DNA of 64,000 nt, taken from assembly GCA_046563655.1 (NCBI GenBank), contig JAJCTO010000014.1, positions 124,001-188,000 of the forward strand, in the 5' to 3' direction. Positions 1-41,235 of the stretch are shown in pieces (the first letter of the stretch is position 1; the number at the start of each line of letters is the position of its first letter). The notes under the pieces were generated by a model, which was not told the origin of the DNA, made no database searches, and saw only the letters and a program-made list of their open reading frames with translations. Origin of the DNA: Yuukianura sp. NJ FZ-2021 (lineage: Eukaryota). Both the position numbers and the translations under genes were made by a program.

Positions 1-1372
1 TCACATTTTTCGCCATTTTTCGTAGCCTTCAATTTTTAATAAAAACTAAACCAAGTCAAAGTCAGAAAAGGGCGGAAAAATTTCATTTTGAAGGAAAATA
101 TTTCAAAATTGTTTTGTGTAGGGAGAAAAGTAAAGGGAAAATGAAAATTTTCCTTTTTTGAAATTTGTATGCAAATTTCACATTTTTGTTTAGAAAAACG
201 GCTTCTTTGGGTAAGACAAAAGACAAGTGAAAGTCAATTTGGGAAATTAGGTCCTTTATAATTACTTCTAACAAAATTGTTTCTTTTGTACCTCCGTAGG
301 TAAATTAGTGACAGTTAGGTTAGTTATGTTATGAAACCTTCACTTAAGTTATGAAGCCTAAAAGAAAAGCGGAGAAAGTTGTTCATTGTTCTGCTGTTGT
401 TAGTTGGTCATAATTTAATTACAGGAGTGGGGAAGCGGCAAAGTGAAAGCAGGGAAAGTCCAGAAATGTTTCTGGACTCTCGCGGACTTTCACCGCTTCT
501 GTTTTTGGAAACCGTAGGTTCAATCCCTACCAGGCGTCCCTAAAAGAGGCTTACAGCTTTTACGAGCCTTGTGCCCCTGAAAACGTAAAGCTGCTTGAGG
601 AGGAGAAAGCTGGAGTTGGGGAAAGTGAAATTTTATTTATTCATTGACTTCCTTTGCTTTATTCATCCTGTCCAACTTCCACAAGATCACTTTCCTCCAG
701 CACAAATTCCTCAAAGCTCCACTGCCACTACGAACCTCTTAATAGCAAAATCAAATCCAGCCAACCACATGGCAGTTCAGCAGTCAGCAGAAAGTCATTC
801 GGTCAACACACAAACAGTCAAAAGCAATTTAGTCAACAAGGGTTTCTAAACATTTGTGGAAAAATTTTTGACAAAATTAAAGTCAAAAATTTTTGACAAA
901 CGTTAAATCCTAAGGATAAGGAAGGCTACTGACTAATTTTTTCTTGTTAATTTAATTCGAAAATTGCAAAATCAATCCGTTTTGAAATAAAAATAAGAAC
1001 AAATTTAGAAACAAGAAAAAAAAAACAAAATAACAAAATTTTTACAAAAATTACAAAATAACAAAGGATTTAAGGGACGAAGCGCGAGCTGCAAAAGATT
1101 TAACTTTTTAAACAAAATTTATTAAAAAAGTTTACGTGGAATAAAATTTCGAAATTTGACTTGACTGAAGATTCTTTAAAAGTGAGAGTCTGAAATTCGC
1201 AACCCTAAACGAATTTGAGAATAATCGAATTTACGCTCCAATCATTCCGAAAGTGCCATTTAGCTTTCTAAAACCACAACAGAGAAAAAGAGAAGCACAG
1301 TTTTTCAAACCAACTTTTCGTTTTTTCATGTTCAAAAACATAAAAAGCAGCGAAGAAACCTTCGAGTACACT

Positions 1373-1870
1373 TATGGGGGGAGATTTGCTGATTAATGTT
1401 AGGAATTTTTCTACATTAGGAATTAATAAAAAAACAGGCTATTCCTAATGCAGAAATTCCTGACGTTCAATTCCTAATGCAGAAATTCCTGACGTTCAAT
1501 TTCTAATGCAGAAATTCCTAACGCAGAAAATCCTGATGTCCAATTCCTAACGCAGAAAATCCTGAGGCCGAATTTCTAACGCAGAAAATCGTGACGTTCA
1601 ACTCCTAACGTAAAAAATCCTGAGGTCCAAATCCTAACGTAAAAATTTCTGACAGTGAATTTCTAATGCAAAAATTCCTGGCAGCAAATTTCTAATGCAA
1701 AAAATGCTGAACCCCAATTTCTGACGTAAAAAATCCTGACACTCATTTTCTAACGTAATCAGCTGATTCCTAATGCAAAAATTCGTGGCGTGGAAAGTTC
1801 GTGTTCAATTCCTGGCGAGGAAAGTTCACAGACTTTCACTTTCTCTTTTTCATTCTCTCTCTATTGTAAC
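1373..1870 (+). repeat. Left TIR of the transposon, with an internal ~30-bp tandem array
   Basis: Reverse complement of ~9455-9939. Tandem units resembling AATTCCTAATGCAGAAAATCCTGACGTTC at ~1440-1790. Confidence 0.92.
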
Positions 1871-2180
1871 ACATTCTTTCTACTGTTGAGAGAGGGCGTC
1901 AATGGCATGCATAAAATACTTGGTTATGTGATAGTTTATTTACAAATGTTGAATGGCTTATATATATGTGCATGTAATATATAATATGAAAGTATTTACA
2001 ATCAAATTCAACCTCTTATACTAAAAACGAAGAGACAAATTCCAACAAAAGCTTTCTTGAAACCAGATCTTTTAGCAATAGTCGATTGAGTTAAGGATAC
2101 AGGGATACATTAATTAGATACAATAATGAGGATTACTTGAATTTTAAATCTAATTAGGCGTAGGAGGGTAGCGCTACCCA

Positions 2181-3424
2181 TTAATTAAAATAAACTCTAA
2201 CGAGGACTCGCAGTTTCTCTTTACAGATAGGACATCTTGGAGACTGTACTCTTCCAAAATCATCGCGCGGAACGTTCGCTTTTACGCCTTCGATGCATCG
2301 GAGACAGTACTGGTGGCCACATTTTAAAACGTACTCCTTGTTGTGATCGTAACAAATTGAGCACAGCATCTGCAGTCCATAAACGATTCATTACTGCTCA
2401 AATATTTATGCATACTTATATTCATGCCAGACTCGTTAGCTTACCCCCGTTTTTAGAGAGTCCATTTCCTCATTGACACGATGTGACCCTTGTTCCTTAA
2501 GAACTTCTTTGCGTCTTTTCAATTCCTTCAGTTCTGTTTCCATATCCCTGCAATCAGAGAATTGTTGCAGACAATTCAACATATGCTCTGCGTCATCGAT
2601 CTTCTTCTGAATTGTTTCCAGGTTAGTCAGCATTGATTCGAAAATTTCTGATGTAGGAGAGCGCTCTCCTAGTTTGCTTTGACAAACTTCCAGGTCAAGT
2701 TGGACCTCTTTAATTAAGTCGTGAAGCCTCGGACCTTGTATGCCAAACTCCTTCAATTGCGCAACAACCTTTGAGACTTTCGCGTACAGAGGTTGTCTAA
2801 CTTCGAACAATTGGTTTACAGTGAGTTGAAACATTTTGTCTTCCTCATCCCAAAACCGTGTTCCCCTGTAGAATTCTATATACTAAAACAAAAGAAAAAT
2901 AACACTTTTAAGATTGGCCGCAACAAAAAAACTAGGCTAGATTAATGGATCGCGCGATCCTTACGTTTCTCGAATGCGCGATACCATCCCTCATTGATGC
3001 TAGCCGCGACTTTAGTAGCTGGTGCAGTTCGGTCGCAGTTACTAAATCTTCGCGATGAGACATGAGAGTTGGCTTTTGGATATAGTATAAACCAAACTCC
3101 ACCTCTGCGATCACGTCCAGTTCAGCGTCAAGGTGCTTACGTAACATGTCTCGCTGCAATGAAAAGTTTCACGTTATTATCTTATCTCCTCTAGCAGATA
3201 ATGTTAAACAATGCATTACTTACATGATGAATAACTGGTGAAGTACGGATACTTTGCTTCTCTCGCCATTTCTGTTTCTCCGCTTCCGGTTTTGGAGCCA
3301 GCATTCTGCGTTCCGTTACTGCTGAACGTTTTGTTTGGATGGCGCCATCCGAGCGCATATCCGTCGTACAAGCACGTCGGTGATGGCCTAAACTACCGCA
3401 AGACCAACACCCACTGGAACTCAT
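2181..3424 (-). CDS. Transposon-borne zinc-knuckle (CCHC) + coiled-coil + C3HC4 RING finger protein (~338 aa, 4 exons)
   Basis: Exons 3424-3224, 3153-2965, 2882-2445, 2369-2181 join in frame via GT-AG introns. N-terminal CWSCGSLGHHRRAC (C-x2-C-x4-H-x4-C); helical middle; C-terminal CSIC...CGHQYCLRC...CPIC RING. Confidence 0.82.
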
Positions 3425-3840
3425 TTTAACGTTAAACAACTTTCTGGAATTTATAATGAATTGAATGTTTATAACTTCTGGATGCGTGTAAAACTAATTC
3501 TAAAACTTGGCCTGAAGCTAAACACTAACGAGCATCGTTGCACCCACCACTGTCATCTGTGTCTACAGTTCATAGCTAACCGCCGCAACCACATCGCTCA
3601 TGATTCCTACAACATGAACATTTGCTCAATTTGATTTCGAATGGTTTTTTATATTGAAATATTTCCATAAATTGTAAGGACAAAAGATAAATACATTACT
3701 TAAACTTAATTACACAATTACTATTATTCGTCCTTACTTCAGCCAAAATAACTGTGCGATTGGTGTATCTAAACCACTGCTATTTCGCACTACGAATTCG
3801 AATTTTTTAACTACGAATTCGAAAAGACTTATGTGGCGTG

Positions 3841-4198
3841 GAATTAAAATTTAGATTTCTCAAAAACGAAAGTCCAGATTTTGAATTCCTTTCGCAGGTT
3901 CATAGCGCGCATGAATCTGAGTACTTATGCAAAAATTTAGCTTTCGCACTGGTCGAAGTCGAAAGTTATGACCATCCGTTTCCACCAGCTTGGCAAGATT
4001 TGAGGTACTACAGAATTAAATTTTTGATTTCTCAAAAACGAAAGTCCAGATTTTGAATTCCTTTTGCAGGTTCATAGCACGCATGAATCTGAGTCCTTAT
4101 GCAAAAATTTAGCTTTCGCACTGGTCGAAGTCGAAAGTTATAACCATCCTTTTCCACCAGCTTGGCAAGATTTAAGGTACTACAGAATTAAATTTTTG
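3841..4198 (+). repeat. Tandem direct repeat (~172-bp unit, two copies plus a partial) inside the transposon
   Basis: 3841-4012 and 4013-4184 are nearly identical and a third start is at 4185. A degenerate echo lies at ~4283-4400. Confidence 0.9.
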
Positions 4199-4890
4199 AA
4201 TACAACTGATACAACTGAACAAACAGTAATCACTAAGACTGATTCTGACGATACATAATAAAAATTAATTAATACACTACAGCTCAAAAACGACTGTCCA
4301 GATTCTGAAATCGTTTTGTATACTTAAAGCTTCTATATTGAAGGATGTTTCAAGAAATTTGTAGCTTTCTTGCTGCTCCAGGTCAAAAGTTATGACAATT
4401 TAATTTCAAAGCCTACCCACTCTCGCTTAAATAAGGCTTTGAGCCTTGGTAGCTTAAATCGCTCACAGAAACGATGCCTATCTTAACGCCTTAAAGTAAA
4501 GATAAAGTACCGTATTTTAAAGCAAAACTGTTTTCATAAGGTTTCATTGATGAATTCCACTGGCGGTCAAAAGAGATTATGTTTTACGTTAAATTAAATT
4601 ATTAATTAATTATCATATCTCATTAATTAATTTATTAATCAACTATCAATTAATGAAAGAACGGGTTGAAAGCCCACGTCTTCTACTGATTTCTGACTAT
4701 AGGTTGTCAATATTCATTTCTTAAAAAAAGTTGAATAAGTAACTGACCACCGAACAGTTCGAGTTCTGACTATTATCCAGACCCCTCAGGTATTTCTTTG
4801 GAACCTGTTTACTTCCCGTGTTTTCACAGTATTGAACTCTATGCTTATTGCATTTCGTGTAGCGCTACACTTTTAGGTGCATTGCTGGTT

Positions 4891-6593
4891 ATGGAGCACC
4901 TAACGCAGCAATCCTTACGTTGCTCAATCCAGCAACTCATCAACGCTTTAAACGAAGGTGCGGATTTAGACATAGTCACACAAGGTTTAGATTTCCTGTT
5001 ATTAGAACTCGAGCTGTGTAACCAACAGGAACACTGGGTTGTGGAATCGGTGTCTAAATTGACAGAAGTTACAGGTCTATTGGTGCAGCAGTTGGAAGGG
5101 GAAACATTGCGCAAACTAGGAAGACCGAGAATTCATATTCCTATTGAAGATATTGAGTTTTTACTATCCTTCCGGTTCAAAGTCGTGGATATTGCCAAGT
5201 TGTACGGCGTGTCAAGAGATACAATAAGTGGACGCCTTCGAGACCATGGGATTTCGGTAAGTACTGAGTTACACCACGCTTAGCGCTAAGCAGTAATTGG
5301 AATGGGCTGACTCTGTTTTGTGAACAAAATTTTCAGGTTTCTCACAGCTATACAAACTTAACTGACGAGCAACTACACTCGGAAATGCTGAAAATCTTAG
5401 AAGACTTTCCAAACACAGGCTACAAACGAATGAAGGGATTCCTCTTAAGCAATGGAATTAAGGTGGCTGACAAAAGGGTTCGACTAGCTATGAGGCAAGT
5501 TGACCCTGAAGGTGTCGCTCTACGACGACGAGGCAACAGAGCCATAGTACGCCGGCAATATACAATGACCTACTCCAACGAGCTGTGGCATTTGGATACA
5601 AATATGAAGTTGATCAGGTTGACAAGTATAAAAACAGCAGTTTAAGGAGGTTGGAAAGCGCTTTCCGTTGTTACATTTTTTAAGTTTATTGCAGGTGGAA
5701 CATTATAATCAGGAGCTGTATCGATGGGAAGTCACGGGTTGTAGTTTATCTGGATGCCAGTGCCGATAACACGTCAAAGACTAATTTAGAATCATTCTTA
5801 AAAGCTGTGACAAAATATGGTATTCCTTGGAGGACTCGCTCGGACAAAGGCGGAGAGAATGTGTCAATTGCTCAATTCATGATTGAAAACCGTGGAGCTG
5901 GAAGAGCAAGTCATATTTGTGGTAGATCGGTGCACAACCAAAGGTGAGTAGCGCTACTCCAGAAAACAGTAGTGTCATCTGATAAAACCATAATTTTACT
6001 TTGTAATTATGTTAGGATTGAGCGGTACTGGAGAGACGTTTACTATGGGTATACGAGCACAATTGCGAGTGTACTAATTGCGCTGGAGGAGGATGGGTAC
6101 CTGGACATAGATAACCCGAAGCATGTAGAACTTGTCCACTTAGTATTCGTTCCAAGAATTAATGACGCTTTGGAAGTTTTTCGAAATGCCTGGAATAATC
6201 ACCCATTGTCGACGGAAGGAAATTATAGTCCAAATCAGCTCATGCTACTCAACCTGCCGCCTGATGACCATGTCCAACACATTTCTCAGGTACTTTGCGT
6301 AGCGCTACGCATCGGACTTGAGAAAATAAAATGTTTTTATCATGAGGAATATACCAAATCCGTTCCTGTTTCCCTAGGAGGATGTGGACGACTACTTGTG
6401 CCAGGACATGTCTGATGTTGCGTACCTGCTTCCACCGGATGTGGATTCGATAACATCGCCAATGAATTTGGCTGGAAGTATTACAGAAATTGAATTGGAT
6501 AGACTAAGACAGCTGGACTTCAACCAACCGTCATCCAGCTTTGGCTTTGACATATTTGTAAACGCAGTGAACCTACTTGATTTTACATCGTAA
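4891..6593 (+). CDS. DDE transposase / integrase-core protein (IS3/IS481-like, ~461 aa, 5 exons)
   Basis: Exons 4891-5256, 5337-5617, 5695-5943, 6016-6289, 6378-6593 total 1386 nt in frame. HTH-like IAKLYGVSRDTISGRL; catalytic motifs LWHLDTN, IDGKSR, RSDKGGEN, SVHNQRIERYWRDV, WNNHPL. Confidence 0.92.
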
Positions 6594-6834
6594 AAAACGA
6601 AGCTTGTTTAATCTGAAAAACATTAAATAAATTAGTGTGGCGCCGCACTACAGAATATAAGCTGAAATCATATCAGTAAGAGGTTTTTCGCAAATATTGC
6701 TACATGTGGCGCCACATAAAACGAAAATAATAATCTGAAAAAACTAAACTAGAAGTAAAGTAGCATGGGTTTTGTGAAGTTCGAATTAAGTAGAAACATA
6801 ACGCAAAAGCAATAAGTACACTTCCTCCGACGTG

Positions 6835-9250
6835 TTAGACTCCCCCGAAACCGTTGCTTGCGTACCGCACGACGAGATTCAACTTCTCCACTAGTTCCGT
6901 GCAACTGATATCATTCGGAATTTGTATTTCGTTGAAGCACGCACGAACCATAAAGTCAACATCGTCTTCAAAACGTACAATTAAAGGATCTTCCGGTAAA
7001 ACGGGCCAACCAGTCCACGCGGACAGCAGATTCTGTAGACCACCTGAAACTAAATATAGCAGTTAGTATGTTGAGCATTCCGGAGTAGCGCTACTCAACT
7101 TTGAGTAACGTAACTTACGCAGTTCCAAAGATTGTATGAAGCTGGTTACAACCGAAAGCATTTCTTGTCTTCCGTGACATTCGATTTTGGAAATAAGCAA
7201 ACTGGAAGGATAATTAAGTGCTGAACTCCGAGGAAATAACGATTCAACTAAGTACGACTTTCCTTTCAGGAATTCACTCAGTCCTGCGCACGTAAATCCA
7301 GCTTTAATCGCCTCCAGTTGTGCAACGCGACGGTCGACCACGGCATGATATAACACTTGTTCTATGACAAAGCCAGAGTTGTGTTTGTTGACGATTTCTC
7401 CGAATTCCGATGATTCTGCCACCTCTTGCACATGCGCTGCCTCATCCTCCGTTAGAGTGGCGCCACTCTGCAGTTTCGCCAACTAATTTTTTTCAAAAGT
7501 TGCTTGAAATTAAATCAAAGGTTAAGTTAATCAAACAACAAAATGATTAAGTTACCAATGCAACTGCTTCACGAACGTGAAGTTCTGGAACGTCCTCCAC
7601 GGTGATAGGAAGTGGCGTATCACTATCAACGGTTTCAAGAAGTACGTACTGCGCAACCGCCTCACTCAATCCAATAAACGCGATTCCGCAATGTAAAGCA
7701 GCGTGACCCAAAAACTTTCCAATCGTTTTGAAAACCCCAGCGCGTAGGAGCCTTCCATCTGTTGCCGGAACCTTGTGGTCTAGTTCACCTTCGAACGCAG
7801 GAAGGCCATCTATCTTGTCTTGAACTAATGCCGTCAGTCCTTTCCAAAAGTATTCACGAGTTATTGCTCCAATGTCGGCCCCTTCAAAATGTCAGTTAAA
7901 ATAAACTAAACATTTTAATTAATTTAATTAGTTGGATAGCGCTATCCTAGTACCGGGTTCACCCTGAAATTCTACTTTTGGTTTCTTCAGGAAGTTGAAC
8001 GCAGGATCCTTGTAAATGCCAAGAATTTTTTCTAGAAAACGCTCTCTTGAAGCAAGAATATACTGAAACCCTTCGTTTTCCATGTAAATTTGTTCGCGAT
8101 AATGGTCCAATGTCAATAGTTCTCCCTCGATTGATGGCGATGAGTTCGCAGATGTAGCATCCGACAAAGGCAAGTGATGATTAACAGCACCCTCGATTGT
8201 TGAATTTAATACCGAAGGCTGTCGTCCGTCTCCAATTGGTGTCTACAAAATGGATAACGCCATCCATTAAACATTGTTTATCACTAACATCAACATAGAA
8301 CTTACAACCATATAATTTGAGCGAGGAAGTTGAAGATTAAGTTCAGGTTCGGCAGTCAAGCCTTGTTGAAGCTCCTCTGAATCCAGTCGTATGGGCTGAT
8401 CAAGCTGAACATCCACTGCTACGTGTGGTAACGGTTGTTCAATTCCTTCCGCAACCTGTGTCAAGTGTACACAGTTCTAATTACAATTAGTTTTGATTAG
8501 GATAGCGCTATCCATACAAAGCAACACTTAAAATGAGTGAGTGTAGACGAGGAACGTAACTTACACTTAAAATGTCGGAAACTGGCTGGACGTAGATAAC
8601 TGCAAGTCGAGAAGCGCGTAAATGCAGCACACCAGGCACTGGCTCCGTGTTTGAAACTCGAACCAATGGCTTCCCTTTACCACCAGTCAGTGCACGATAC
8701 AATACAACATCTACTCCAACTAGTTTTGGGAAAGTGCTTTCCAGTGCCGCCTTCAATGCGTCAGTTGTTGCAGTGGGATCTAGCAAAGTAACAATTGATC
8801 ATTACCCATGCCACACTTTACGCCTTTATTTAAAAAAAACTAACCGATTGTGATAACTTCTTCCCCTAGTCCATGCCTTTTGAGAAGTAGCATACGAGAT
8901 TCGATTGGTGTTTTCAATTCCGAAGGTCCACCAAGACAGCAGTACCTGGCAGTCCAAGGCCTTATATTACGTACCGGAATGGAACGTTGTCGAAGTGCTG
9001 GGCGCCCAGTTAAACGCAGACCAGCAGCTGAAGTCGATGGTCTCGGATAAGGTGCAAACAGGCGAGACATTTCGGATCGCGCGAGTCCATTGGTAGAGCT
9101 TCCGGATTGACCTTGTTCTTGTCTTCGAGTTACCACTGGTGTAGTGTGACCCGGAGTCACTGTTGTAGCTGTGGGAGACTCAACGCCAAGTAAACTAGCA
9201 AGTTGGGTAAGAATTTGAGTAGCAGTAGCTCTGGTATTTCCATCCGCCAT
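6835..9250 (-). CDS. Transposon-borne HECT-domain E3 ubiquitin ligase (G2E3-like, ~652 aa, 7 exons)
   Basis: Exons 9250-8845, 8779-8565, 8455-8306, 8242-7954, 7881-7556, 7482-7119, 7043-6835 total 1959 nt in frame. HECT motifs VEFQGEPGADIGAITREYF, FKTIGKFLG, AWTGWP, catalytic-type RACFNEIQIP, C-terminal GFGGV. Confidence 0.87.
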
Positions 9251-9454
9251 ATTGGGCTGATTTGTATGAGTTCCGGTGTTAGCAAACCGTCACGACAAAA
9301 TTCTACATTGATTCAAATACAGTATTTGATATATCGCAACACTTATCCACTTCAGAGTGGCGCCACTCAACAGACGTGTAGCACTACACCTAAAAATGTA
9401 AAGCTAGTGTTTTTCACTGCAGATAACGCCCCCTCTTGACGGTTGGAAGAATGT

Positions 9455-9939
9455 TTTTACAATAAAAAGTGAGAATGAAAAAGGGAAAGTGAAAGCATGT
9501 GAACTTTCCTCGCCAGGAATTGAACACGAACTTTCCACGCCACGAATTTTTGCATTAGGAATCAGCTGATTACGTTAGAAAATGAGTGTCAGGATTTTTT
9601 ACGTCAGAAATTGGGGTTCAGCATTTTTTGCATTAGAAATTTGCTGCCAGGAATTTTTGCATTAGAATTTCACTGTCAGAAATTTTTACGTTAGGATTTC
9701 GACCTCAGGATTTTTTACGTTAGGATTTGGACGTCACGATTTTCTGCATTAGGAATTTGACGCCAGGATTTTCTGCGTTAGGAAATGGACGTCACGATTT
9801 TCTGCGTTAGGAATTTAACGCCAGGATTTTCTGCATTAGGAATTGGGCGTCACGATTTTCGGCATTAGGAATAGCCTGTATTTTAGACATTCCTAATGTG
9901 GAAAAATTCCTAACATTAATCAGCAAAACTCCCCCCATA
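9455..9939 (-). repeat. Right TIR of the transposon, with an internal ~30-bp tandem array
   Basis: Reverse complement of 1373-~1870. The inner segment (e.g. GAATCAGCTGATTACGTTAG) is near-identical; outer tandem units are more diverged. Confidence 0.92.
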
Positions 9940-12900
9940 TACACTAACTGAGAGAGAGTGTAGTTTGTAGTAAACCGAAACGCATCAATCATGGTTTGAC
10001 AGATGAACAAACTTACACAAAAGCCTAAAACCACATAACATCCTCCGTAAAAACGGATCCTACCTTCCTCCTCCTCCACCTCCGGCCTCCTCCTCCTCCG
10101 GAGTAGCAACAACGGTGACATTCCGTTTTTGTTCAAAAGAGAACAAAAGGAAGTCGGTTTGTGCGGAAGACGACTTCTGTTCTACTCAGGCCCGGTTTAT
10201 TTTTAGCGTCTGTTTCCTCTCCTACTCCAAATAATGTTTTCGCATTTGCAAATTGGTTTTTGGCGGTTCCCTGTTTTTTGGCATGTCTCTTCGAATTATC
10301 CAAACTTCTTCCAAAATGGAAATTGAAAACGAAAACTCAAAATGGAATTGACTCATGTCCTACATGTATTCCATGGAATTTAGATTTTCAACACACTTTT
10401 TGACAAAACAACATCATTATTTTTTTGAAAACTGTTTTTTGATTTTTTTTTTTTGAAAATGAAGAATAGGAGGAAGTTCGTGACAGGAGTGAAAGTTAAA
10501 AGCGGAAAATGGCTTTTGCAAAGAGCGGGAAATCTCGTAGTGCATCGCATGTTTCATCGTCTGATGGGTTAATAACTTTCTCCGCAGGGAAAGTTCGGGT
10601 GCTAAAACTAAAATGACAATTAAGTCCACGCAAAGACACACACACATACACGTCTGATTTCAACACGTAAAAAAAGCGTGTACAAAGACGTGTACGTGTG
10701 GTTCATGTTGACGCTTGAGGACAAACATTCATAATTCGGCTTTTCTTTTATCTGTGAGATGATCAGCAGATGTGATCCGAAAATCGGTTGAAAAGAAAAT
10801 TTTCTTGTGGAAAATTGATATGTTTAGGCTGTCTGTCATGATGATGATGTTGGCGTGACCTCAGGTCAACTTTTTTGACATTTGACGTGTGACATGTGTG
10901 CCAATACTGTTAGTGACATTGACAGTTATGTTTAATCTGAATTAGGAATCTGCAAGTACAAAACCAGGATCTGGAATGTTCGGAGAAGTCAAGAGATAGC
11001 ACTGCCTCGGCCTACTCTGCGTTTTACCCTACATTTGGAATACCCGTATCCAAAAATGGTGTGAGACATGACATACCACTCGTCATCCAGGTTATGATAT
11101 GGACACATTTAACTACTTTTTGGAAAGTTGACCTTTGACCTTTCAAAGTTGACCTTTGATGTTTTGGTTTTCAGTTGGGTGGTGGGGGGTCATTGGTCGT
11201 TTCACTCCAAGTCAAATTCTACAAAGCTCAAGATGAAAAGCATTCCGAATGGGGTAATGTGCAACAGAAAAAAAAATCGATGAGCATTTTTTTTTAAACA
11301 TGAAATGTATTTAGAAATTTTTGGAAATGTTTTTTGAAAATTGTTTTCGAATCTTTACTGATTTTCTTTTGTAGGAAGTTCACTTCATTGCATAGAGTAC
11401 GAATGCAGTTATATCCCAGGTGAGAACCAGTGGAATTGGAAATTTTTGTTTCAAAATTTTGAAATTTTGAGATTTCGAAATTTTGAAGCAAAATTTGTGT
11501 TGCCATTTTGTGTTGTTCAACAGGTGCGGAGCGAGTGATTGTGACAAAGGAGACTTACAGGTGACATAAATAATTTGTCAACTTCGTAGGATTTAATAAC
11601 TTTCGCATGTTAATTCAAGTTGAAAGTGATTGATGAGTGACCTCATGTTGACCTTTCCAGATTAACCAACAGCAAACCCCGCCTATGCTAAAACCAACGT
11701 TTAAACTTACGCCAATTCAGACCTGGATATGACCCTACACCGTCTGGGAAATGTGCGATTAAGACAAGTGACTTATCAGAGGTCAACAACAGTGACGGCG
11801 ACAATTGCTCTTAACCCTCAACTATTCTTTTACTCATGCTCTCTCAACTAATCGTAATTAAACTCACTTTTACCTTAATTAACCAACTTAGGGCCTTAAA
11901 CCTCCAGTTAGTTATGTTAACCTTAACTTTAACTGAGATTCACACCTTGCCTCTTGTGAGAAAGTTAGGACCAATACATAAAGAACCATCACCAATCATG
12001 TTTTAAAATTCACTATGTAAGAGATCTCTGCCATAATAAAAACTTATCCCAAAAATCTACTAAAAAATCACTCAAATGATTAGTTTCCTTAGTTTCCCAA
12101 TGTATGTGTATGAGAATCCTCGAAATTTCAAAATTTCTCACACCATAGAAGTAACCATGGATTTTTATTCTCAAAATGTAAATGTTGACCCCCCTTGCGG
12201 GAGGTCATGTCCAAAAAGTCAATGAATACTCATTGAGTTGTCCCCCTCCACGGAAATCTTTAGTAAAAGGCGAAAGATTTATACGTCTTGAAGGGAGACC
12301 TGAGTTGGTTTTCCATTTGAACTGCACGGTGCTATCCACTTCTACATTGAAAAATACATGCTGGACCATGCACATATTAAGGACAATTTAATACCGAAAT
12401 AATAACAACTGATAGTATATTTTACGTTAATTTTGAAGCATATTGTTTGAAAAAGTTAATTAGTGTTGTCACTGTTTTAGGTAATTTGATATACGTCAGT
12501 TAAAATTGTTTCATTTAACGATGAAATCTTTTAATTTGTAGAGTTTTTGGCAGTTTGAAATTTCACTTCTGCCGGGCGCCAGATTCAAATTCAAATTTTT
12601 GGTTTGGCGCTGCATGGTTTCACTAAATTTTTCCTTTTCTCATTTCTAAACCCACAAACTACTTTATGGGATCATAAATAGGCACCGTTAGAAAAATTAT
12701 CGCCATATTGTTATGAACAATCCTAGTGCAAAACTTAAATACAATTAATTACAACAAATGCAATACTAATTTAAGTAATTTAAACTAAGTTTAGTATGTT
12801 TAATGATCAGAGGTTAATCGCGTTAAGCAGATTAAGAAACTCAAAAATCAATAGTGCCCAGACATACTAGCTGGTAGTGATAAGTAGCCTATTGCGAAAC

Positions 12901-32180: not shown

Positions 32181-33091
32181 TTGCAATTTTGAGAAAGTTG
32201 CAAAAATTTGTACGTTGCAATCGTTCCATGTTGATAAGAAAGCCTCAAGAGCGTCGTTTTCCTTGTTTTTACACTTTTGAATTCTATTCCGCACTTTGTT
32301 TAGTCTGGTGCACAAATTAGGATTGTTTTTTAAAAACAATTCTGAACATAAACTTCCCGGTTGAGGTAAGGTTTAATGAGCATCCAAATTCCATCCATAA
32401 CGCCCATTTAGTGTTGCTATTAAAACAGGAGCAGGCGGCTACACCTCGGTGGCAACATTTGTAGCCGCTCTAATCTAATCGAAAGTAGCGACATAGTAGT
32501 ACATAGTCGCACATCGTAGCCATTGTAACATCAGCGTAGCCACCCATTGTAGTAGTCGCTTGCTACACTTCACATTACACAATATAGTACGCTGTCTGGT
32601 TGCAACAACTCTTCTTAAACCTTACTTGAACCACCATATCATATAATTTTGTACAGCACTTTACAGGATCTTCTTACAAAAAATATGGCAAGTTTTTCTG
32701 TTATATGTTACAAGCAAACTACGGTTGAGGCGAGTACAATGTGTAATTTCTGTTTTATTGTGCCTCTGCCTTCCCTTCGTGTTTTTTTTCAAATGCAAAA
32801 AATGGAGATACAAACAGAAGAAAAGAAGTGCCTTTATTATGGGCTAAGCAGTCCATGGGATAGGGCACTCCTTAAGCTAAGGAAGTAGAACCGTTTGGTG
32901 ACCCAGTGACCTTTACCCTCTCCAATATCATCTCATCATACGCAGGTCAACGTCCTCTAGCACTTTTTTCCCCGTGTCAAGGCACACGGGTCATTGTAGG
33001 CCCTTAAATTCCTTAATTTGTGTGACCTTTATTCTAAAAATATAAAAGTCAGCTGACTCGAACCCCCAGGAACTTGGAAGGGGGAGGGTGG

Positions 33092-35860
33092 ATGGAGGGA
33101 AAATCAAATTCAGCTGGAAATCGAAATCATATGACTAGGATGGGAGACGTTGTTGTGGTTTCATCCCCTTCGCCTTCACCACTTCATCAGCAGAACTTTG
33201 GAGGAGGTGAGTCGCCAAGAGCAGGCAGTACTTCTACGGTAGCATCAGCGGCACTGGAAATTGCTAAAAGTGTTGTCAGGATGCCAACAATTGCATTTGA
33301 GAAAGTGACGCACGAAGTAGGGTCGGGAGGCCAGGAAGAGAGCGAAGAAGATTTACAAGAGCAATTACTGGGTAAGAACGAGAAAGTTGTTAAAAATGGT
33401 AGGGTTAGGAGACGTCGTTTTTATCGAAATTGGTGTCCTTATTGTATAGGCGGCAATGGAGGAAGGAGGAAAAGTTTTCGAAAGCGTAAGAAATCAATAC
33501 ATGGAGGTGGGAATGATGGGAATTATATGCCACCGTACAAGTCAAGACGAATGTTCATTAGAAGACATATTTCTTGTCCATCCGGACCTGGAGGTGGCGG
33601 AGTCCATAAAACACCGCTGAAGTTTCTTCTGGGTGGAAATGCACACGATCCATTGAACTTGAACGGTCTCGGAGATTCGGATAATGCCGTAACACCAAAA
33701 ACGTCACCAATGCCATTTCCTTCTTCGCACAACTCGGGTGAAATTCCAATTATGATTCCTAAAAATTATCATGATCCGTTGCGCTTGTTGTCAGAAGATG
33801 ACGTAGAGAATACCAGGGATGTAATCGAAGGCATTTTGTCGGTCACTCCGACCGAAACCCAACCACAACCACACCCGCATAAGAGACGTCGTCATCGCAG
33901 AAGAAGCTTGAGAAAGAGAAATGAAAGCGAGTGCAGCGTTGAATCTGCCGGTTCTGACGAAGACGTTGAAAAAGTAGCTGCGGCAGTTATTGCAGAAAAT
34001 CATATCAAGGAACTACGAGACGATGATGAAGTAGATGCGATTCCCATTCAGCAACATTCAGAAATACAACCACAAGCGACTGGTGACATCTCAGAGGATG
34101 GCATCGGCGACAAGGGTCAAGTTCGAGAAAGTTCGAGTTCACAAGCTCAGGAAAAAGAAAAAATGACAACGCCTTCTGATGTCGCTCCAGCAGAGAAAGA
34201 AGTTGTTGCAGTTGAAAGGGAGCCGAGTACATCATATCCATTTCGTGTTTCCAGCGATTATATTCCTTTGTCGTCTCATTATCAACCTTCACCGTTTGTT
34301 TTAGATACCATGAACGAGAATTTTACGGTTTTGCCCTTCGAGTCACCTTCAATGAGTAACTACATGGGTACACAGGACACGTTCACAATTACAGAACCAT
34401 TTTCACCTCCGCCTCGTCCCATGGATGTTATGATTGAGCATCGTGTTCCTTCTGGACACTACGGTCTTGGATGCACCCCTCCAAGAAACGAAATTCAGCG
34501 TCGACAACTTCCTCCGGAACCATCAGTCCAGCAGCAGGCGATGTTCAACCGAAGGTATCGAAATCGACTTGATCCAATTGTGAGTCCGGTTTTCCCGAAT
34601 CTCACTACTGGAAAACGACCATGGGCTTCACACGCACATCTCCGACATCATCACAAGAAACAACATCAGCACCATCCACAGCAACCGAAAGTTGCCGAAG
34701 AGAAGAAGGAAAGTGACAACAAGCAGACGAAGCCAGTAGAGGGCAAGACACTTCATAAATTTCATACGAAGGACAAGATTTTTCGTTTTGGGAATTACAA
34801 CCAGTACTATGGGTATCGAAATGCTGGGCAAGCAGAGGATGCTCGATTGAGAGCATTCAAAAAAGAATGGATCGAAGGAAAGGATGTACTAGACATTGGA
34901 TGTAACGTTGGACATGTGACACTCTGCCTAGGACGGGACTTTGGACCACGCCGGATCCTGGGAATTGACATTGACGGATACTTGATCAAGGTGGCCAAGA
35001 AGAACATCAAGCATTACGTGGATCGAGATCCAAACGACGTGAGTATAAAGTTTCCTCTCGCCCTTTCAATCGTACATGGAAGTCTTCAACCTCCACAGTT
35101 GGAAGCGGCCGTGGGGAAAACACCGGAGTATGGAGGACCGAGTGCTACGCCGACGTCGACCACTGGCAGCCAAGGAGAACGCAAGAGGATTCTGTTTCCG
35201 TACAACGTTGGTTTTCGCCAAGTATGTCTTCAATTTTTTTAGAATTTCACACTTTTTTCTAATTTTTCATGGCAAGATTCTTCTAAACTTTTAATGTTTG
35301 TTTTGAATTTTAGGAAAATTACGTTATGGAAGATGACGACATGCTGTCAACCGTGAAACCCCAGTACGATTGCATCGTTTGTCTCAGCACTACGAAGTGG
35401 GTGCACCTCAATTTCGGAGATGACGGGCTGAAGCGATTTTTTCGGCGAGCATTTTTGAATCTGCGACCTGGAGGAGTCTTTGTTCTGGAGCCACAACCAT
35501 GGACATCGTATCGCAAGAAAAAGAAGTTGACCGTAAGAATCTACACTTTAACTTACCTTATATTTATCAGCTCGATTTAAACGGAATTAACTAAATGTTT
35601 TTTTTTGTTACTTGCAGGAGGAAATTTTCAAAACTTTTCAAAGTATCAAATTCTTCCCGAAGGATTTTGAAGCCTTTCTTTTGAAGGAAGTGGGCTTCTC
35701 ATCTGTTAGCTTAGTTGGAATCCCAGCTCACCACTCCAAAGGCTTTCAGCGACCAATCTATGTGTTCACCAAAGGCGGTACTGCTGCAACTACCTGCAAA
35801 CCACCCACTGAAGAGCACATGGAGATTCCTGACACAGTCGAAGATTCCGCTGTTTCCTGA
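33092..35860 (+). CDS. MEPCE: 7SK snRNA methylphosphate capping enzyme (Bin3 family methyltransferase), 3 exons
   Basis: [76 protein letters not shown]. Exons ~33092-35221, 35314-35532, 35618-35860. The start codon is uncertain. Confidence 0.93.
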
Positions 35861-36709: not shown

Positions 36710-39700
36710 CTAAGGTGACGGTGACCTGGAACGATGTGCCAAGTACTTGGATGCTTCGTATCGCTTCTTAGTAGACTTTCGACGCTGATGAAGATTTAGA
36801 TTTGGATGTGAATTGGTAAGACGAGTATTTTGATTCATCACCGCTGTAGTACTACGCTGCGCTTCAATCTTACTTTGATGGAGGGAAGAGGAAGAAGACG
36901 CTTTTGTTCCTAACGACGGCACTGTAAGTCTATTGGACTTTTCCCCATAGTTGCCCGGAGTCAAATGAATAATTGAATTTGGAAATTTTTTGCCTAGGGA
37001 GGACTCAATAATTGGAAGCGTTGGATTTGAAACTGATTTGCTCATGGATCCAAACGGAACGTTCTGTCGATACTCCTGGTCATCAACGTGACCTCTAGGC
37101 CGTGTGCTGGAATTGGTCGAAGTGACGCTCAGGTTGTAGATATAGAAGGCCTCATTTCCGGCCTTCAACTGCGATCGAAGTTGAGAGTAGCTCTGGATCT
37201 GGAATAGAAAACGACGGTTCATTAGAAATAATTGGTAAGTTGAGTTAAAATACGATAATTTATTTTGAAACTTTAACAATTTGGGAAAGTCTGCAAGTAT
37301 CGGAGATGTTTTCTATTGATCTCTTTCGGTTTTTGCAGGAATTGGATAGAAAAGTGAAAAAAGAGGGTTTGCGTGTTTTCTAAAGAGGTTTGACCTTGAT
37401 TTTCCTCAAAAACATTTTAAGAGTTCGGAAATCAATGAAAATCTAAAAGGTAAACAGGATTTAACTAACCTGAAATTTAAAAAACAAAAAAAATGTTTCG
37501 GAAATCTACTATTAGGGGCCATAAGTCCTAAAACCAGGTTTGGCTGTTGTGTTTTCAGACGAGTCTGTCCGTCTGTATGTCTGCCTGCATATTATGATGA
37601 AGTTGGGGATTTAGAAAACCTACTTTTTGAAATTTCTCTAACTATTCTGTTTAAAATTTTATTCAATTGATTTTGAAGTTATGTTTATTTGAAAAGTTTG
37701 ATTGATTTTTGTTTCTACTTACAGCTCGACCGGTCAGCGTTTCCATCCTGGACTGAACAGACCTTGGAATTTTGACTGCCAGACCCAAATCTTTGACCAA
37801 TTCCTGGAACTCCTGTGACACCCGAGTATTTAGCAGTACTTGACTCTGGACAGTTGGATCTCCACCGTTGATGACCCGAATAATCTGTTTGTTGAGTACA
37901 GTCGTCGGAGCATGTGCTAGAGCCTGGCTTTCTTCAATGGCTGCTCTCAGTACTTTTTCAGCTTCAACAGCACTCTGCTGAAGTGGCCTTGTGTTTCGTT
38001 CACTTCCGCTGGACCAATCCTGATGTGGTGACCCCCAGACGACCCCATTGAGTGACCTTTCTCTTCGGACTCTTATGATTGGTGGCTTTCTATTTGATGG
38101 AGCCGATGGAGGACGACTTCGACTTCGGCGCTTGCTACTAGCACAAGTACCTTTGCCATTTCCTTCTCCTGTTCCAGTTTCTACAACTTCGCCACCGTAG
38201 TTCAAGGCCTTCAAAAGTGGATACAGTTTGGTTAGCATCTTTAGCGAAACAGTGGCCTTGAAAAATGTTTGCTAAGCTGAGAATTTTTGCAAACTTGCAA
38301 ACTAGCTCAACTAACTCTTTGATAACGTTGCCACTTTGAGACTGGTAAACTGGTTGTAAAAATTGCACAATTTATAGCGTTCGTAGAATTTTAATTTCGT
38401 GAAACGAAAAAATTGTTTTTGGGGAGGAGATCATTTCAGGTTCAGTTTTTGGCAAACATCACGAGCAAGTCAACATTTCACAATTTTTTTTGCAAACATT
38501 TTCTGACTCTTCTCGTGTAACGCTTGAGGCAGGTTAACTACTGGTGTGCGTCACAAAAAAATTGTAAACAGGTTACTTCTCGAGAACGTCGTTTTCTTTA
38601 CTACGAAAAGTTAATCTCTTGTGCAAATTATTATAATCCTTGTCTGTTTATGTTGACGAGACTTTAGCAAAAAAAAACTGCTAATTAACTAATTTGTCTT
38701 CCAAGAAGTGCTTTTCTGCTTCTCTGTGCTAAAATGTGTCTGAATAGGAAATCTACATCTATGCTCCATTTCAAAACTTTATTCCGCCTGTGTATTTCTC
38801 TGGTCCCCGCTCCCACCGCCTCCCCCCTGTGTTGTTGGGTTCAAAACTTTAGGAGAAGACACAGGGGGAGGCGGTGGGAGCGGGGACCAGAGAAATACAC
38901 AGGCGGAATAAAGTTTTGAAACGGAGCATAGTTTGTACATCTAGTTTTTAAAAACCTTTTATTTTTATTTTTTTTTTTGAAAATTTTTGAGTTTAGTTTT
39001 CCTAACTTGTTCAAGAACATGTCACGTTTTTTTTGACATCTATCAAGTAAAACATGCGTCAGTGAACAGAACAACGCGGGTGATGTTAGTTGCAATTTCT
39101 CAAAAAATGAGGAAAATTTCTGAAAAATCATGACAGTTAAATTGATAATTTACCTTGAATTTTTTAGTTGACGACACCACGTAGGCATGTTCATGTCTGA
39201 GATCATCCAGCGTCTCAATCGGGTCACCATGTAGAGTAAAGATGAATCTTACTCCACGGGGTAACTTGAGTCGCTCAGACAAAATGTCACAGAGACCATC
39301 GAAGTTATGGACATCCCGTCCAGGACGAAATCGATACTCGAATCTCGGTAAATGCTCATCTCCATTGATATAAAACCGAACAATTTTGGCCACCCACTGA
39401 TCCATGTTTTGTCTCCGCAGAACTCCAGGTACGTTTCCACCAAAGCCCCGTCGATTCCTGCTGTCTCGTTCATCTTCGGGGTAAATCGGAGAGAGTCGTT
39501 TCGGAAGAACAGCGGGATACCGAACCTGTTTAATATTCAAAGGATTGAGAACTGTGATGGACACGCTATTTAGAGCTCCCGGGAGTGTTAGAATGGTTGA
39601 AGGTGTCAAGTGACCCGGGGCATGCGAAAGAGGCAAGCGATCGCGCTTATCTTTTGTGTCACTTTCAATGTGAACTCGGCTGAACAAGGGGGTAAACTGT

Positions 39701-41235
39701 CCAGCTCCGATGCTGCCAGTATCGGACTCTCCGCTGCTACTACTGCTGCCTTCAGGTGTGGCGTTGTCTGACATTTCGTCGTGAGTTTTGTCGTCAATTG
39801 GTTCTTGCGTCTGCATATTGGCAGGTACTGATTCTGATTCGTTAGTCACTTGTGCTTCTTTGGCCAACTCTTCAGAATCTTTAGCAGTTTCCATGGGCTG
39901 AACAAGATCCTGGAGCGGAGTTGCATTTGGAGCCGAATTTGAATCAATCGAGACAACACGAATGTCAGCCTCTTTAGCTTCTTCTGTGGGCGATGCCTGT
40001 GGTGGATCTTCAGCTTTGTCCGGTTCGTACTCTGGTGACCTGTAAGTGACCTCTGGCAATATGTCACCCATTGTTGGTTCAAGTTTGTACTCAGGTGACC
40101 TGTACGTGACCTCTGGCAAAATTTCATCTACTGCCGGTTCAGCATCAGACTCATGTTGCGAATTCAAGATCCACTGAGTTATGGACGTTTCCTTGTCGGG
40201 GTCAAGGGACACATGAGGTGGCGCTGGATCTTCAACTTCAGCAGTATCCTCAGTTTTCTGATGCTTCGGAGATTTCTGTTCCTCAAAAACTAAAAGGCCG
40301 TCTTTGTCCGACTCTGCTACAACAACAGAGTGGTGCGGAGAGTCATTGGCTAGCCTTAACAACGCTTCTAGTTCTTGGTGATGTGCTGCCGAATTGGGAT
40401 TGTTATTGGTGTCACTACTGATACTGCCAGCACTACCTCCAACCTCGCCATGGTCCGTGTACAAGTTCTCAAAGAAAGTTGCTTTGGAAATGGCCCGGAT
40501 GTTGCTGAGCAGTTCTCTTCTGAGCGTCACTTCTGCTTCGGCCAATGAGGAAGAAGCGATTGAGCCAGTGTAGAACTGCCCCAGGGATCCAGCATCAGCG
40601 CGATCTCCTTTTCCTTTGAAATACTGACTTCTGGTTGGAGATTTGTCGGCAGGTTTGGCACTGAGGTCATTTGTCCCCTCAAGGTCAAGGTCATGCAGAA
40701 AGTTTTCTGGAATGACCTCCAAAGGCCTGTTGACCTCGTCACTATGGAATACTTTGTGGTCATTTCTAGCATCTCGCAGGAAGCTGCCATCTTCAGACTG
40801 AATCAAAAGGTCACGCTGATGGAGCGCATGACTCTGCGAACTGTTGAACAAATCGGAGAATTTACTGCTTGAAAAATGTTCTGGAGGGAGCAGAGTCATC
40901 ATGGAGGTCGACGATTGGTCAACGCCACTTTCAGCTTCACTGTCAATGTTATGCACTTCGGCACTTGTGACGGTCACGGTAGAAGCAGTATGTGCTGGCG
41001 TACTTTCTCTACCCGAGTCACTTTCACCTTCAAAAGAGTAAAATCGGGTGGTTTCAATTACGTGTTTGGTGGGTGTGGTGGGACGAGTTCCACTGCCAGC
41101 AGTGGCGTCAACAGTTGGTGGCTCAAAGGCTGAAGTTATGACTTCCTGCTCCTTCAAAAACTCCGAGTATTTGGTAATGATTCGGTTATTGTTTTGACTG
41201 TACATAGTTCCAGTACCAGAAAAGCCTGGCGGCAT
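36710..41235 (-). CDS. Tandem doublecortin (DCX) domain protein with a long acidic low-complexity N-terminus
   Basis: DCX1 KIVRFYINGD...LPRGVRFIFTLHG...YVVSS (~39150-39380). DCX2 IIRVINGGD...VLLNTR...FQELVKDL...TLTGRA/IQSYSQL (~37720-37890 plus ~37140-37200). Start and exon limits approximate. Confidence 0.75.
38759..38931. repeat. Near-perfect ~173-bp hairpin / small MITE in an intron of the DCX gene
   Basis: Arms 38759-38832 and ~38859-38931 are complementary except for one mismatch and one indel. A TACATCTA direct repeat lies at both flanks. Confidence 0.85.

Follow-up and report, generated by a model that had tools for sequence, protein, structure and literature searches.

Short palindromes with family-specific centres are spread through the interior of a clade of HECT-carrying IS3EU-type DNA transposons and appear to be under purifying selection

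The subject of this work is a complete DNA transposon of 8,567 bp, assigned below to the IS3EU/GingerRoot type, that lies in a 64,000-nucleotide stretch of the Yuukianura sp. NJ FZ-2021 assembly GCA_046563655.1 (contig JAJCTO010000014.1, positions 124,001 to 188,000 of the forward strand). We call the whole stretch the window and count positions from its first letter. The interior of the transposon carries 15 short perfect palindromes that share the four central bases GCGC and differ in their arms, which nevertheless match each other at every site. Based on the patterns of sequence change described here, the best-supported statement is that the palindromes are probably cis-acting signals of the transposon maintained by purifying selection. 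They are common to a whole subclade of HECT-carrying IS3EU elements, and they are more conserved than coding sequence.

By exhaustive scan, the entire window contains 29 perfect even-length palindromes whose arms are 7 or longer, and all 15 of those within 2166-9368 are GCGC-centred. In 300 dinucleotide-preserving shuffles of the element, palindromes of any centre averaged 0.71 (at most 4 in one shuffle) and GCGC-centred ones 0.027 (at most 1). Inside the element, 15 of the 31 occurrences of GCGC have five complementary flanking pairs out of five, as opposed to 1 of 57 elsewhere in the window. As a host control we used the 54-kb flank that follows the element in the window (9946-64000). It holds 12 palindromes of at least 14 bp (5.0 in shuffles), 4 of them GC-rich (1.5 expected), with a density of 0.22 per kb compared with 1.75 per kb in the element. 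A sequence-only reading of the window had listed the 15 palindromes, put them well above chance and noticed none in the flanking host DNA. Each one is where that reading placed it, with the sequence it gave, and both the excess and its restriction to the element hold up in the scan, in the shuffles and in the arm pairing of host sequences reported below.

Our gene models, which were predicted from open reading frames, GT..AG boundaries and exon homology across families, place the sites in all four transposase introns, in three HECT introns and one HECT acceptor, in one RING intron, in two or three coding positions and in four untranslated region (UTR) or intergenic positions. These models agree with the earlier reading's placement of the sites in introns, exons and UTRs. 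There is no site in RING intron 1, RING intron 3 or HECT intron 1; the exons adjacent to them carry perfect or near-perfect ones. The window scan found family palindromes neither in the terminal repeat at either end nor in the 1.5 kb that separate the RING and transposase genes. The original list can be extended by four sites that are decayed or nearly perfect (at 6635, 8252, 8997 and 9376).

The palindromes recur in related elements. The most conserved transposase exon retrieved 22 proteins, and an alignment of eight of them was used to scan metagenome contigs, which gave 80 related loci. We scanned the closest of these for palindromes (L001-L020, L051 and L052); they are partial metagenome contigs, and the element in the window is the only complete one. 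These closest relatives are 57-82% identical, and 17 loci among them hold 65 further perfect palindromes with arms of at least 5 bp. Each of the 17 has one centre only: GCGC in L001 (9 sites in 3.7 kb), L002, L003, L007, L008, L009, L013 and L052, GATC in L004, L005, L014, L015, L017 (12 sites in 5.8 kb) and L018, ACGT in L006 and L012, and TCGA in the single site of L016. The histograms of arm length are bimodal, with arms of 0-2 and then of 5 or more, and every site in L006, L007 and L012 has arms of exactly 6. Smaller versions of 10-12 bp were seen in L009, L011 and L019, where arms of at least 3 flank 8/12, 4/5 and 6/19 centre occurrences, respectively, and the scan found no family-type palindromes in L010 or L051. 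The GCGC core, described as fixed when only the window had been read, is fixed within this element and its GCGC relatives and is not universal, because sister families use GATC or ACGT.

In a FastTree phylogeny of three transposase exons, the type of centre is mostly consistent within clades, with at least three switches. One switch is caught between sisters: L003 (GCGC) and L004 (GATC) group with a support of 0.94 and have the arms GTGTA/TACAC in common at the same intron. Among more distant loci (at most 56% identity), dispersed palindromes were not found. In one distant family (L025, L026 and L044), the only enriched palindrome is aaaaTCGAtttt, which is confined to both subterminal regions, and these clusters are an ordinary terminal array. 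Other distant loci were flagged for ATAT, TATA, CATG or TGCA centres, which we take to be simple or tandem repeats from an inspection that covered L023, L037 and the TCGA arrays. No relatives were found in a viral contig collection.

Evidence for selection on symmetry comes from sites that were not chosen for being palindromic. We took each occurrence of the family centre, palindromic or not, which gave 254 sites from 19 sources. Perfect 5-bp arms flank 80 of the 254 (0.2 expected), and one mismatch is present at 50 (3.7 expected). The frequency of arm pairing at distances 1 to 5 from the centre is 0.68, 0.65, 0.61, 0.60 and 0.51. When the right arms were permuted within loci, pairing at these distances was 0.31-0.37, and none of 1000 permutations reached the observed values; at distance 6, pairing is 0.35 (reached by 4 of the 1000 permutations), and at distances 7-8 it is at chance level. 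All four Watson-Crick pairs are found at each arm position, and the 80 perfect sites have 53 distinct arms. Pairing is at chance (0.20-0.30) for non-family centres in the elements and for all three centres in host DNA.

Direct comparisons between loci point the same way. In six locus pairs, 161 of 168 palindrome columns (96%) are identical, compared with 64-80% identity in other aligned sequence, which is mostly coding exon. Sites occur at equivalent introns and UTRs across families whose introns no longer align otherwise, and the differences between them are compensated. In the transposase exon 4/5 intron, the window has GCGTA..TACGC and L001 has GCGTG..CACGC; in the exon 1/2 intron, the window has GCTTA..TAAGC and L008 has GCTTG..CAAGC. 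Compensated arms are also seen in the exon 2/3 intron (GGAAA, GGATA and AGAAA) and in the exon 3/4 intron (TCTAA and TCCAA). These changes, together with the permutation test on unselected sites, bear out the proposal that structure is conserved over arm sequence.

Sites in coding sequence follow the same rule. In L005 and L017, GTACGGGATCCCGTAC codes for Y-G-I-P-Y in the most conserved exon (transposase exon 3), and in L014 and L018 one synonymous change breaks this site. Exonic sites in L015 (exon T2) and L018 (exon T4) fall in gap-free protein alignments. Exonic sites are made in place, some of them through codon choice. An origin by small palindromic insertion or as a repair footprint was considered and is rejected for the exonic sites on the basis of the gap-free protein alignments.

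Spacing along the elements is more even than random. Neighbouring sites are separated by at least 291 bp in the window (P 2e-5) and by at least 319 bp in L001 (P 1.5e-5). Against an expected value of about 0.9, the coefficient of variation is 0.25-0.60, and families have typical periods of about 400 to 650 bp. A rule of one site per intron describes the data less well than even spacing does. The sequence-only reading had proposed such a rule for the transposase; it is true of the window, where 4/4 introns have a site, and breaks down in the relatives, because L001 and L007 are without a site in the exon 3/4 intron and some families use exons. Two of the decayed or near-perfect sites are close to perfect ones, at distances of 21 and 69 nt, as if sites turned over while each segment retained one.

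Three other sources of the pattern were tried and set aside. General hairpin enrichment is rejected because the excess over shuffles, for any 4-nt centre or for spacers of 0-8, stems wholly from the family-centre palindromes. CpG methylation as the cause of the CG-containing centres is rejected because the ratio of observed to expected CpG is 0.86-1.02 in elements and host, and GATC has no CpG. Reading arms such as GAGTA and GTGTA as pseudo-5'-splice sites (U1-binding) is rejected because the arms of other families are unrelated.

The form of the sites bears on how they could be read. Because the arms are arbitrary and yet match, and a symmetric protein is unable to compare its two half-sites, we infer that the arms are read by base pairing. 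All three family centres (GCGC, GATC and ACGT) are self-complementary, and the sites with a single mismatch (12 G·T, 14 A·C and 24 other) do not favour G·T on either strand. Together these two features argue for Watson-Crick symmetry on both strands, which fits DNA better than a sense-RNA hairpin. The predicted hairpin energies of ten sites are -1.3 to -4.6 kcal/mol as DNA and -1.9 to -8.8 kcal/mol as RNA, with z scores against shuffles of -0.3 to -3.2 for the latter. With stability this marginal, it is not stability itself that selection maintains, and the folded form would need a protein to capture it. A protein reader would impose just such a combination of constant stem length and family-specific apex, and since closely related families have different apexes, this reader is most likely encoded by the element.

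We favour, with confidence that falls somewhat short of even, the reading that the sites mark the transcribed, gene-bearing interior of the element for a factor which the element itself encodes and which promotes expression or works against silencing. The arms would pair with each other, forming a hairpin on either strand or a cruciform, in which the four central bases would be the apex carrying family identity and the stem length would be set at 5-6 bp. Such a signal would work on both strands, pointing to DNA rather than to sense RNA alone, and its marginally stable folded form would be captured by a protein. The capturing protein would most likely come from the element, the candidates being the CCHC-knuckle/RING protein or a DNA-binding domain of the transposase. 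Placed roughly once per 300-650 bp, the sites would label the transcribed interior of full-length copies and could recruit the element's own factors, for example its two ubiquitin ligases, so as to keep the copy expressed against host silencing.

The role given to the sites is the least certain step of this explanation. We favour marking because the sites are absent from the ends and from the putatively untranscribed spacer, because the clade carries two ubiquitin ligases and a knuckle protein, and because the passenger genes of some other IS3EU elements have been proposed, in the part of the article available to us, to oppose silencing (PMC12730594). A narrower version seems doubtful to us. 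It holds that the sites are a self-recognition barcode, in which a family-specific four-base apex would be read in folded form on either strand by an element protein (the best candidate being the zinc-knuckle/RING ligase) that would tether both ubiquitin ligases to the element's own chromatin or nascent transcripts and so disable host silencing, with the apex diversifying between competing families.

Several observations weigh against the marking role. The helix-turn-helix in transposase exon 1 does not track the type of centre, and no covariation between them was seen. Zinc-knuckle sequences are limited to three loci. Melting a GCGC centre is difficult, and stems of 5 bp do not readily extrude as cruciforms. 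Many families with differing centres come from one metagenome, which may contain several hosts, and a host factor is a possible reader. The distant loci L024, L065 and L076 carry the transposase/HECT pair without palindromes, which argues that the ligase does not need them. In L015, about 1.5 kb of RING/knuckle region contains a single 12-bp site. It is mainly one complete element with predicted gene models that ties the sites to transcribed regions, and the even spacing is partly confounded with the regular spacing of introns.

The first of the other explanations places the signal in RNA, and we consider it unlikely. It proposes that the sites are short stem-loops of the pre-mRNA or mRNA with a family-specific tetraloop, read by an RNA-binding protein such as the CCHC-knuckle/RING protein, or that self-complementary 14-mers pair two transcripts, in either case for splicing, export, dimerisation or protection of nascent RNA from small-RNA-guided silencing. 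All 15 sites in the window do lie within the putative span from 5'UTR to 3'UTR of a gene, with none in the terminal repeats or the spacer, several adjoin donor sites or an acceptor, hairpin predictions give somewhat greater stability for RNA than for DNA, and the element encodes a zinc knuckle with a Pfam match, a kind of domain that can bind the loops of single-stranded nucleic acids. A shared apex on variable stems is also the pattern of the dispersed packaging signals of viruses. Nevertheless, an RNA loop needs no self-complementarity, and all three centres have it; mismatches that G·U pairing would tolerate on the sense strand are not favoured; the stability of many sites is no better than that of shuffles; and introns, exons and UTRs alike hold sites, so that no single RNA-processing step covers them all. 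For the same reasons (self-complementary centres, no G·U preference and marginal stability), the use of a sense-strand RNA hairpin for splicing or export, which the sequence-only reading had offered, fits poorly. Its other two suggestions, self-recognition by a protein of the element and evasion of silencing, stay plausible candidates. A search of Rfam 15 over positions 1-12000 of the window with E up to 0.1 returned only mir-553, below its gathering score and outside the element (11444-11493).

It is distinctly unlikely, in our view, that the sites help a long element to move or be copied, whether as synapsis or internal enhancer-like sites, as points where priming or repair synthesis could start on either strand in copy-out transposition, as interruptions of homology that curb ectopic recombination, or as a guard against self-insertion, read partly by host proteins of DNA metabolism. 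Symmetry on both strands would be expected if either DNA strand may become single-stranded, and the even interior spacing with a family-typical period would suit such a role. The IS3-family transposases, which are relatives of this one, use copy-out-paste-in, and phage Mu shows that long elements can need internal cis sites that short ones do not. Against this, host machinery would not account for a centre that differs between close families, and the 1.5-kb spacer and the terminal 490 bp at each end are without sites, even though such roles must cover them. Contig joints from one terminal repeat to the other hint at internally deleted forms without sites, which also speaks against a mechanical role, weakly so as the matched sides are shorter than 30 letters.

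Ordinary duplex operator sites for a symmetric dimeric protein are, to our mind, a very unlikely explanation. Here there would be no extrusion or pairing, and the symmetry would come from a degenerate preference shared by both half-sites. There is a loose arm consensus in the window and L001 (the outermost base is G in 23 of 24 sites, and next to the centre there is usually T and then a purine), the total length is constant at 14 or 16 bp per family, as a footprint would be, and the family-specific centres resemble heteroimmune operator sets. But independent half-sites would not always match, and all 24 sites of the window and L001 are perfect even though arm positions 2-3 vary freely. The GATC families have exact symmetry without any conserved arm position, and the 53 distinct arms among the 80 perfect sites are likewise hard to reconcile with this explanation.

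Scarcely credible is a mutational by-product without function, in which intrastrand template switching during replication recopies one arm from the other: template switching can convert a one-arm change into a compensated pair, and transitions are somewhat enriched on both strands in the single-mismatch sites, as in simple decay, but it does not explain a roughly 500-fold excess limited to this clade of elements (host DNA and non-family centres are at chance level), the single centre to which each family keeps, palindrome conservation of 96% against 64-80% in neighbouring sequence, retention at equivalent introns in families whose introns have otherwise ceased to align, the sites made through codon choice, or the even spacing. 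Recopying may help to keep the arms perfect.

The sites can be set against several known systems. Eukaryotic DNA transposons are thought to hold their cis information at the ends and their genes in the interior. The subterminal repeats bound by transposases, such as this element's own 29-bp arrays and the aaaaTCGAtttt arrays of L025, L026 and L044, are likewise short, family-specific, multicopy cis motifs. They differ in having a fixed sequence and in lying within a few hundred bp of the ends, whereas the palindromes avoid the ends and keep only centre and symmetry; an interior spread and 53 distinct arms among 80 sites are not what a fixed-sequence, end-clustered repeat would give.

The hairpins of integron attC sites, of IS200/IS605 and REP/RAYT, and of the Helitron 3' end are DNA sites defined by structure and read as hairpins. 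As in the palindromes, complementarity is conserved in them, the sequence-specific part is small, and changes between copies are compensated. Unlike the palindromes, they are single or terminal recombination or cleavage sites of tyrosine recombinases or HUH nucleases, have longer stems and are not spaced along coding regions. The dispersed packaging signals of single-stranded RNA viruses and the palindromic dimerisation sites of retroviruses and Ty1 are known RNA stem-loop systems, with stem-loops genome-wide, a common apex, varied stems, self-complementary GC-rich motifs and usually a zinc-knuckle protein as reader. These act in packaged RNA genomes, whereas the carrier of the palindromes is a DNA transposon without capsid or reverse transcriptase genes, and the palindromes have strictly Watson-Crick symmetry on both strands and occupy introns too. 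The periodic A/T clusters (PATCs) of Caenorhabditis elegans germline genes are intronic anti-silencing DNA signals, and bacterial DNA uptake sequences are short self-marking motifs. Both are, like the palindromes, dispersed short DNA signals that are tolerated in coding sequence, lie mainly in introns and mark a whole stretch; they are not palindromes, have no family-specific centre and are carried by host genes or whole bacterial genomes. The likeness is one of analogy.

If the sites are the signals we take them for, the interior of these elements holds, across a whole clade, a further layer of information under strong selection, one that is evenly spaced, symmetric on both strands and marked by a family-specific centre that has switched several times. 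The sites offer a clear example from nature of compensatory changes in DNA palindromes of very short length. At 14 bp they can be mutated and compensated, so that experiments can readily ask how an autonomous element tells its full-length copies apart or protects them, and they point to transposon-encoded ubiquitin ligases as possible counter-defence genes in animals. Should a reader protein be found, pairs of centre and reader could be orthogonal, programmable recognition modules. Were the barcode version true, it would be a self-recognition of a kind not known in eukaryotic mobile DNA, with the GCGC, GATC or ACGT apex as the specificity determinant.

The carrier, by its sequence features, is of the IS3EU/GingerRoot type, as the sequence-only reading had it. 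Its termini are TATGGGGGG...CCCCCCATA (at 1373 and 9939), thus TA..TA, it is flanked by a 6-bp target-site duplication (TACACT), and its terminal inverted repeats of about 490 bp each are composed of 29-bp subterminal repeats. The transposase has a DDE, integrase-like core related to IS3/IS481 that matches Pfam rva_4 (PF24764; E 6.3e-30 on exon 3 and 1.4e-20 on exon 4), and its named relatives are annotated as integrase core domain-containing proteins. According to the portion of the article we consulted, TA..TA ends and a 6-bp duplication define IS3EU (PMC10045372), and fungal members are described in the available part of another as terminating in TAYGG..CCRTA (PMC12730594). The integrase-type DDE transposase (rva_4), the TA..TA termini, the 6-bp duplication and the long terminal inverted repeats are all shared with IS3EU/GingerRoot elements as the consulted sections present them (PMC10045372, PMC12730594). 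What seems to set the element apart is its internal dispersed palindromes and its HECT and RING passengers. Full-text literature, in the parts available to us and with Repbase reports and subscription journals outside the scope, gave no report of either for the superfamily, and the terms palindrom, hairpin and ubiquitin have 0 occurrences in the GingerRoot paper (PMC6839031).

Contigs from sequencing runs appear to show the insertion site without the element. Those of runs X1, X2 and X4 (one sample) bridge from 1366 to 9940 with six letters in common, and a contig of run X3, which has a second organism label, bridges from 1372 to 9952; these joints are consistent with uninserted (empty) sites. 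Run X3 also contains pieces of the element that are identical over hundreds of bases while the locus is seemingly uninserted; recent activity of the element, transfer, or one species carrying two labels would each be in keeping with this. Some contigs join one terminal repeat directly to the other (1396 to 9833 and 1551 to 9797). With matched sides of less than 30 letters, and with depth being no measure of copy number, they are a weak hint of internally deleted copies that move without palindromes. No further copies of the element were found in the 64-kb window. Of 590 differences between copies, 0 of the 40 listed ones fall in palindromes, which is uninformative as palindromes make up about 2.5% of the stretch.

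Table 1. Coordinates of the transposon, its predicted genes and its palindromic sites in the window. Abbreviation: TIR, terminal inverted repeat.
Feature	Position	Strand	Remarks
Complete IS3EU/GingerRoot-type DNA transposon, 8,567 bp	1373..9939		TIRs; ends TATGG...CCATA; empty-site joints
Target-site duplication TACACT, 6 bp	left copy 1367..1372, right copy 9940..9945		direct sequence reading and empty-site joint
Left TIR	1373..1860		array of 29-bp subterminal repeats; family palindromes: none
Right TIR	9468..9939		array of 29-bp subterminal repeats; family palindromes: none
Spacer between divergent RING and transposase genes	3351..4856		about 1.5 kb; family palindromes: none
CCHC zinc-knuckle/coiled-coil/RING gene (predicted)	2181..3424	-	exons 3424-3224, 3153-2965, 2882-2445, 2369-2181
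Transposase gene (predicted)	4891..6593	+	five exons: 4891-5256, 5337-5617, 5695-5943, 6016-6289, 6378-6593
HECT ubiquitin-ligase gene (predicted)	6835..9250	-	seven exons: 9250-8845, 8779-8565, 8455-8306, 8242-7954, 7881-7556, 7467-7119, 7043-6835
Palindrome GGGTAGCGCTACCC	2166..2179		just 3' of RING gene stop codon
Palindrome TAGGAGAGCGCTCTCCTA	2654..2671		coding, RING exon 3
Palindrome GGATCGCGCGATCC	2947..2960		RING intron 2, overlaps donor (GTAAGGATC...)
Palindrome GGATGGCGCCATCC	3337..3350		coding, RING exon 1, directly past zinc knuckle
Palindrome GTGTAGCGCTACAC	4857..4870		ends 20 nt 5' of transposase ATG
Palindrome GCTTAGCGCTAAGC	5278..5291		transposase intron 1; L008 counterpart in same intron GCTTGGCGCCAAGC
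Palindrome GGAAAGCGCTTTCC	5653..5666		transposase intron 2; in same intron L001 GGATAGCGCTATCC and L007 AGAAAGCGCTTTCT
Palindrome GAGTAGCGCTACTC	5946..5959		transposase intron 3, from third intron base
Palindrome TGCGTAGCGCTACGCA	6296..6311		transposase intron 4; L001 counterpart in same intron GCGTGGCGCCACGC
Near-site GTGTGGCGCCGCAC	6635..6648		4/5 arm pairs; 42 nt past transposase stop, 69 nt from perfect site 6704
Palindrome ATGTGGCGCCACAT	6704..6717		between convergent transposase and HECT stop codons
Palindrome GAGTAGCGCTACTC	7083..7096		HECT intron 6
Palindrome AGAGTGGCGCCACTCT	7454..7469		across HECT intron 5 acceptor/exon 6 start (codes S-G-A-T-L); L001 site identical
Palindrome GGATAGCGCTATCC	7934..7947		HECT intron 4
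Decayed site GGATAACGCCATCC	8252..8265		HECT intron 3; L001 perfect GGATAGCGCTATCC at apparently equivalent place
Palindrome GGATAGCGCTATCC	8500..8513		HECT intron 2
Near-site GCTGGGCGCCCAGT	8997..9010		outermost pair lost; HECT exon 1; L001 perfect GCTGGGCGCCCAGC in same exon
Palindrome GAGTGGCGCCACTC	9355..9368		about 105 nt 5' of HECT ATG
Decayed site GTGTAGCACTACAC	9376..9389		centre GCAC; 21 nt from perfect site 9355

Pfam searches with all 15 exon translations of the element matched the integrase core, a helix-turn-helix, CCHC, RING and, weakly, HECT, and nothing else; no HUH (Rep/TnpA) nuclease or tyrosine recombinase is among the matches of the element's exons. In the predicted CCHC/RING protein, a long helical stretch separates the N-terminal CCHC knuckle (zf-CCHC, E 5e-4 on exon 1) from a RING finger at the C-terminus; exon 4, which encodes the RING finger (2184-2369, - strand), scores 31.2 bits with zf-C3HC4 (cut-off 21) and 32.9 bits with zf-RING_UBOX (cut-off 25.2). 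For the ligase, Pfam HECT gives only 13.4 bits on the single last exon. A profile of this exon built from 10 loci and compared with PDB had 47 matches, all 47 of them HECT C-lobes (AREL1, HUWE1, E6AP, NEDD4 and others; best E 6.7e-5), and the catalytic Cys is invariant in the profile. No homologues of HECT exon 5 were found among longer proteins.

The transposase/HECT gene pair is present in every clade contig that reaches far enough, and knuckle/RING genes were found in L006 and L015. In the window, L001, L007, L015, L017 and L052, the transposase and HECT genes are convergent, and in L006 and L012 the HECT, transposase and RING genes are all on the same strand. The accessory genes of L015 (GATC; 608-1362 and 1397-1807) are arranged unlike those of the window: its RING finger is split by an intron made of a 26-bp tandem array (815-1004, 7.3 copies), and two separate CCHC knuckles lie 5' of the transposase. 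Stop codons in the HECT gene mark L014 and L019 as decayed copies. In transposase intron 1 of L004 (about 430-450) there is an inverted repeat with a non-palindromic centre, GCATA-GCTT-TATGC, which may be a site caught decaying or switching; the other site of L004 is GATC-centred. Transposase exons 3 and 4 are contiguous in L024, L065 and L076, with no intron between them, which would make the exon 3/4 intron, a frequent palindrome host in the clade of the window element, either clade-specific or lost in these three loci.

The spacer between the RING and transposase genes contains a 172-bp tandem repeat (3841-4199, 2.1 copies, 95% matches) with an apparent third, diverged unit downstream at about 4270-4440. 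Contig depth over 4210-4500 is several-fold above that of the rest of the element in all four runs, and so this piece may also occur elsewhere in the genome.

In the host part of the window, the sole GCGC-centred perfect palindrome outside the element (48076-48093, GCAGCCTGCGCAGGCTGC) lies within repeated GCCTGCA-like words and is probably a low-complexity coincidence. Another perfect palindrome, GTACTCGCGAGTAC at 60145-60158, is near dynein heavy-chain exons; it has a CGCG centre, is followed by more ACTCG-type repeats and is unrelated to the element family. By the named matches of a dynein exon, given below, the host is an animal and probably an arthropod. Host genes include an open reading frame of 734 amino acids at 33038-35242 (+) with a weak methyltransferase-domain match and one of 744 amino acids at 39100-41334 (-) with a doublecortin domain at its end. 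Exons at 61068-63206 (-) encode an axonemal dynein heavy chain, for which the best named match is a springtail protein (64%), with other animals at 57% or less.

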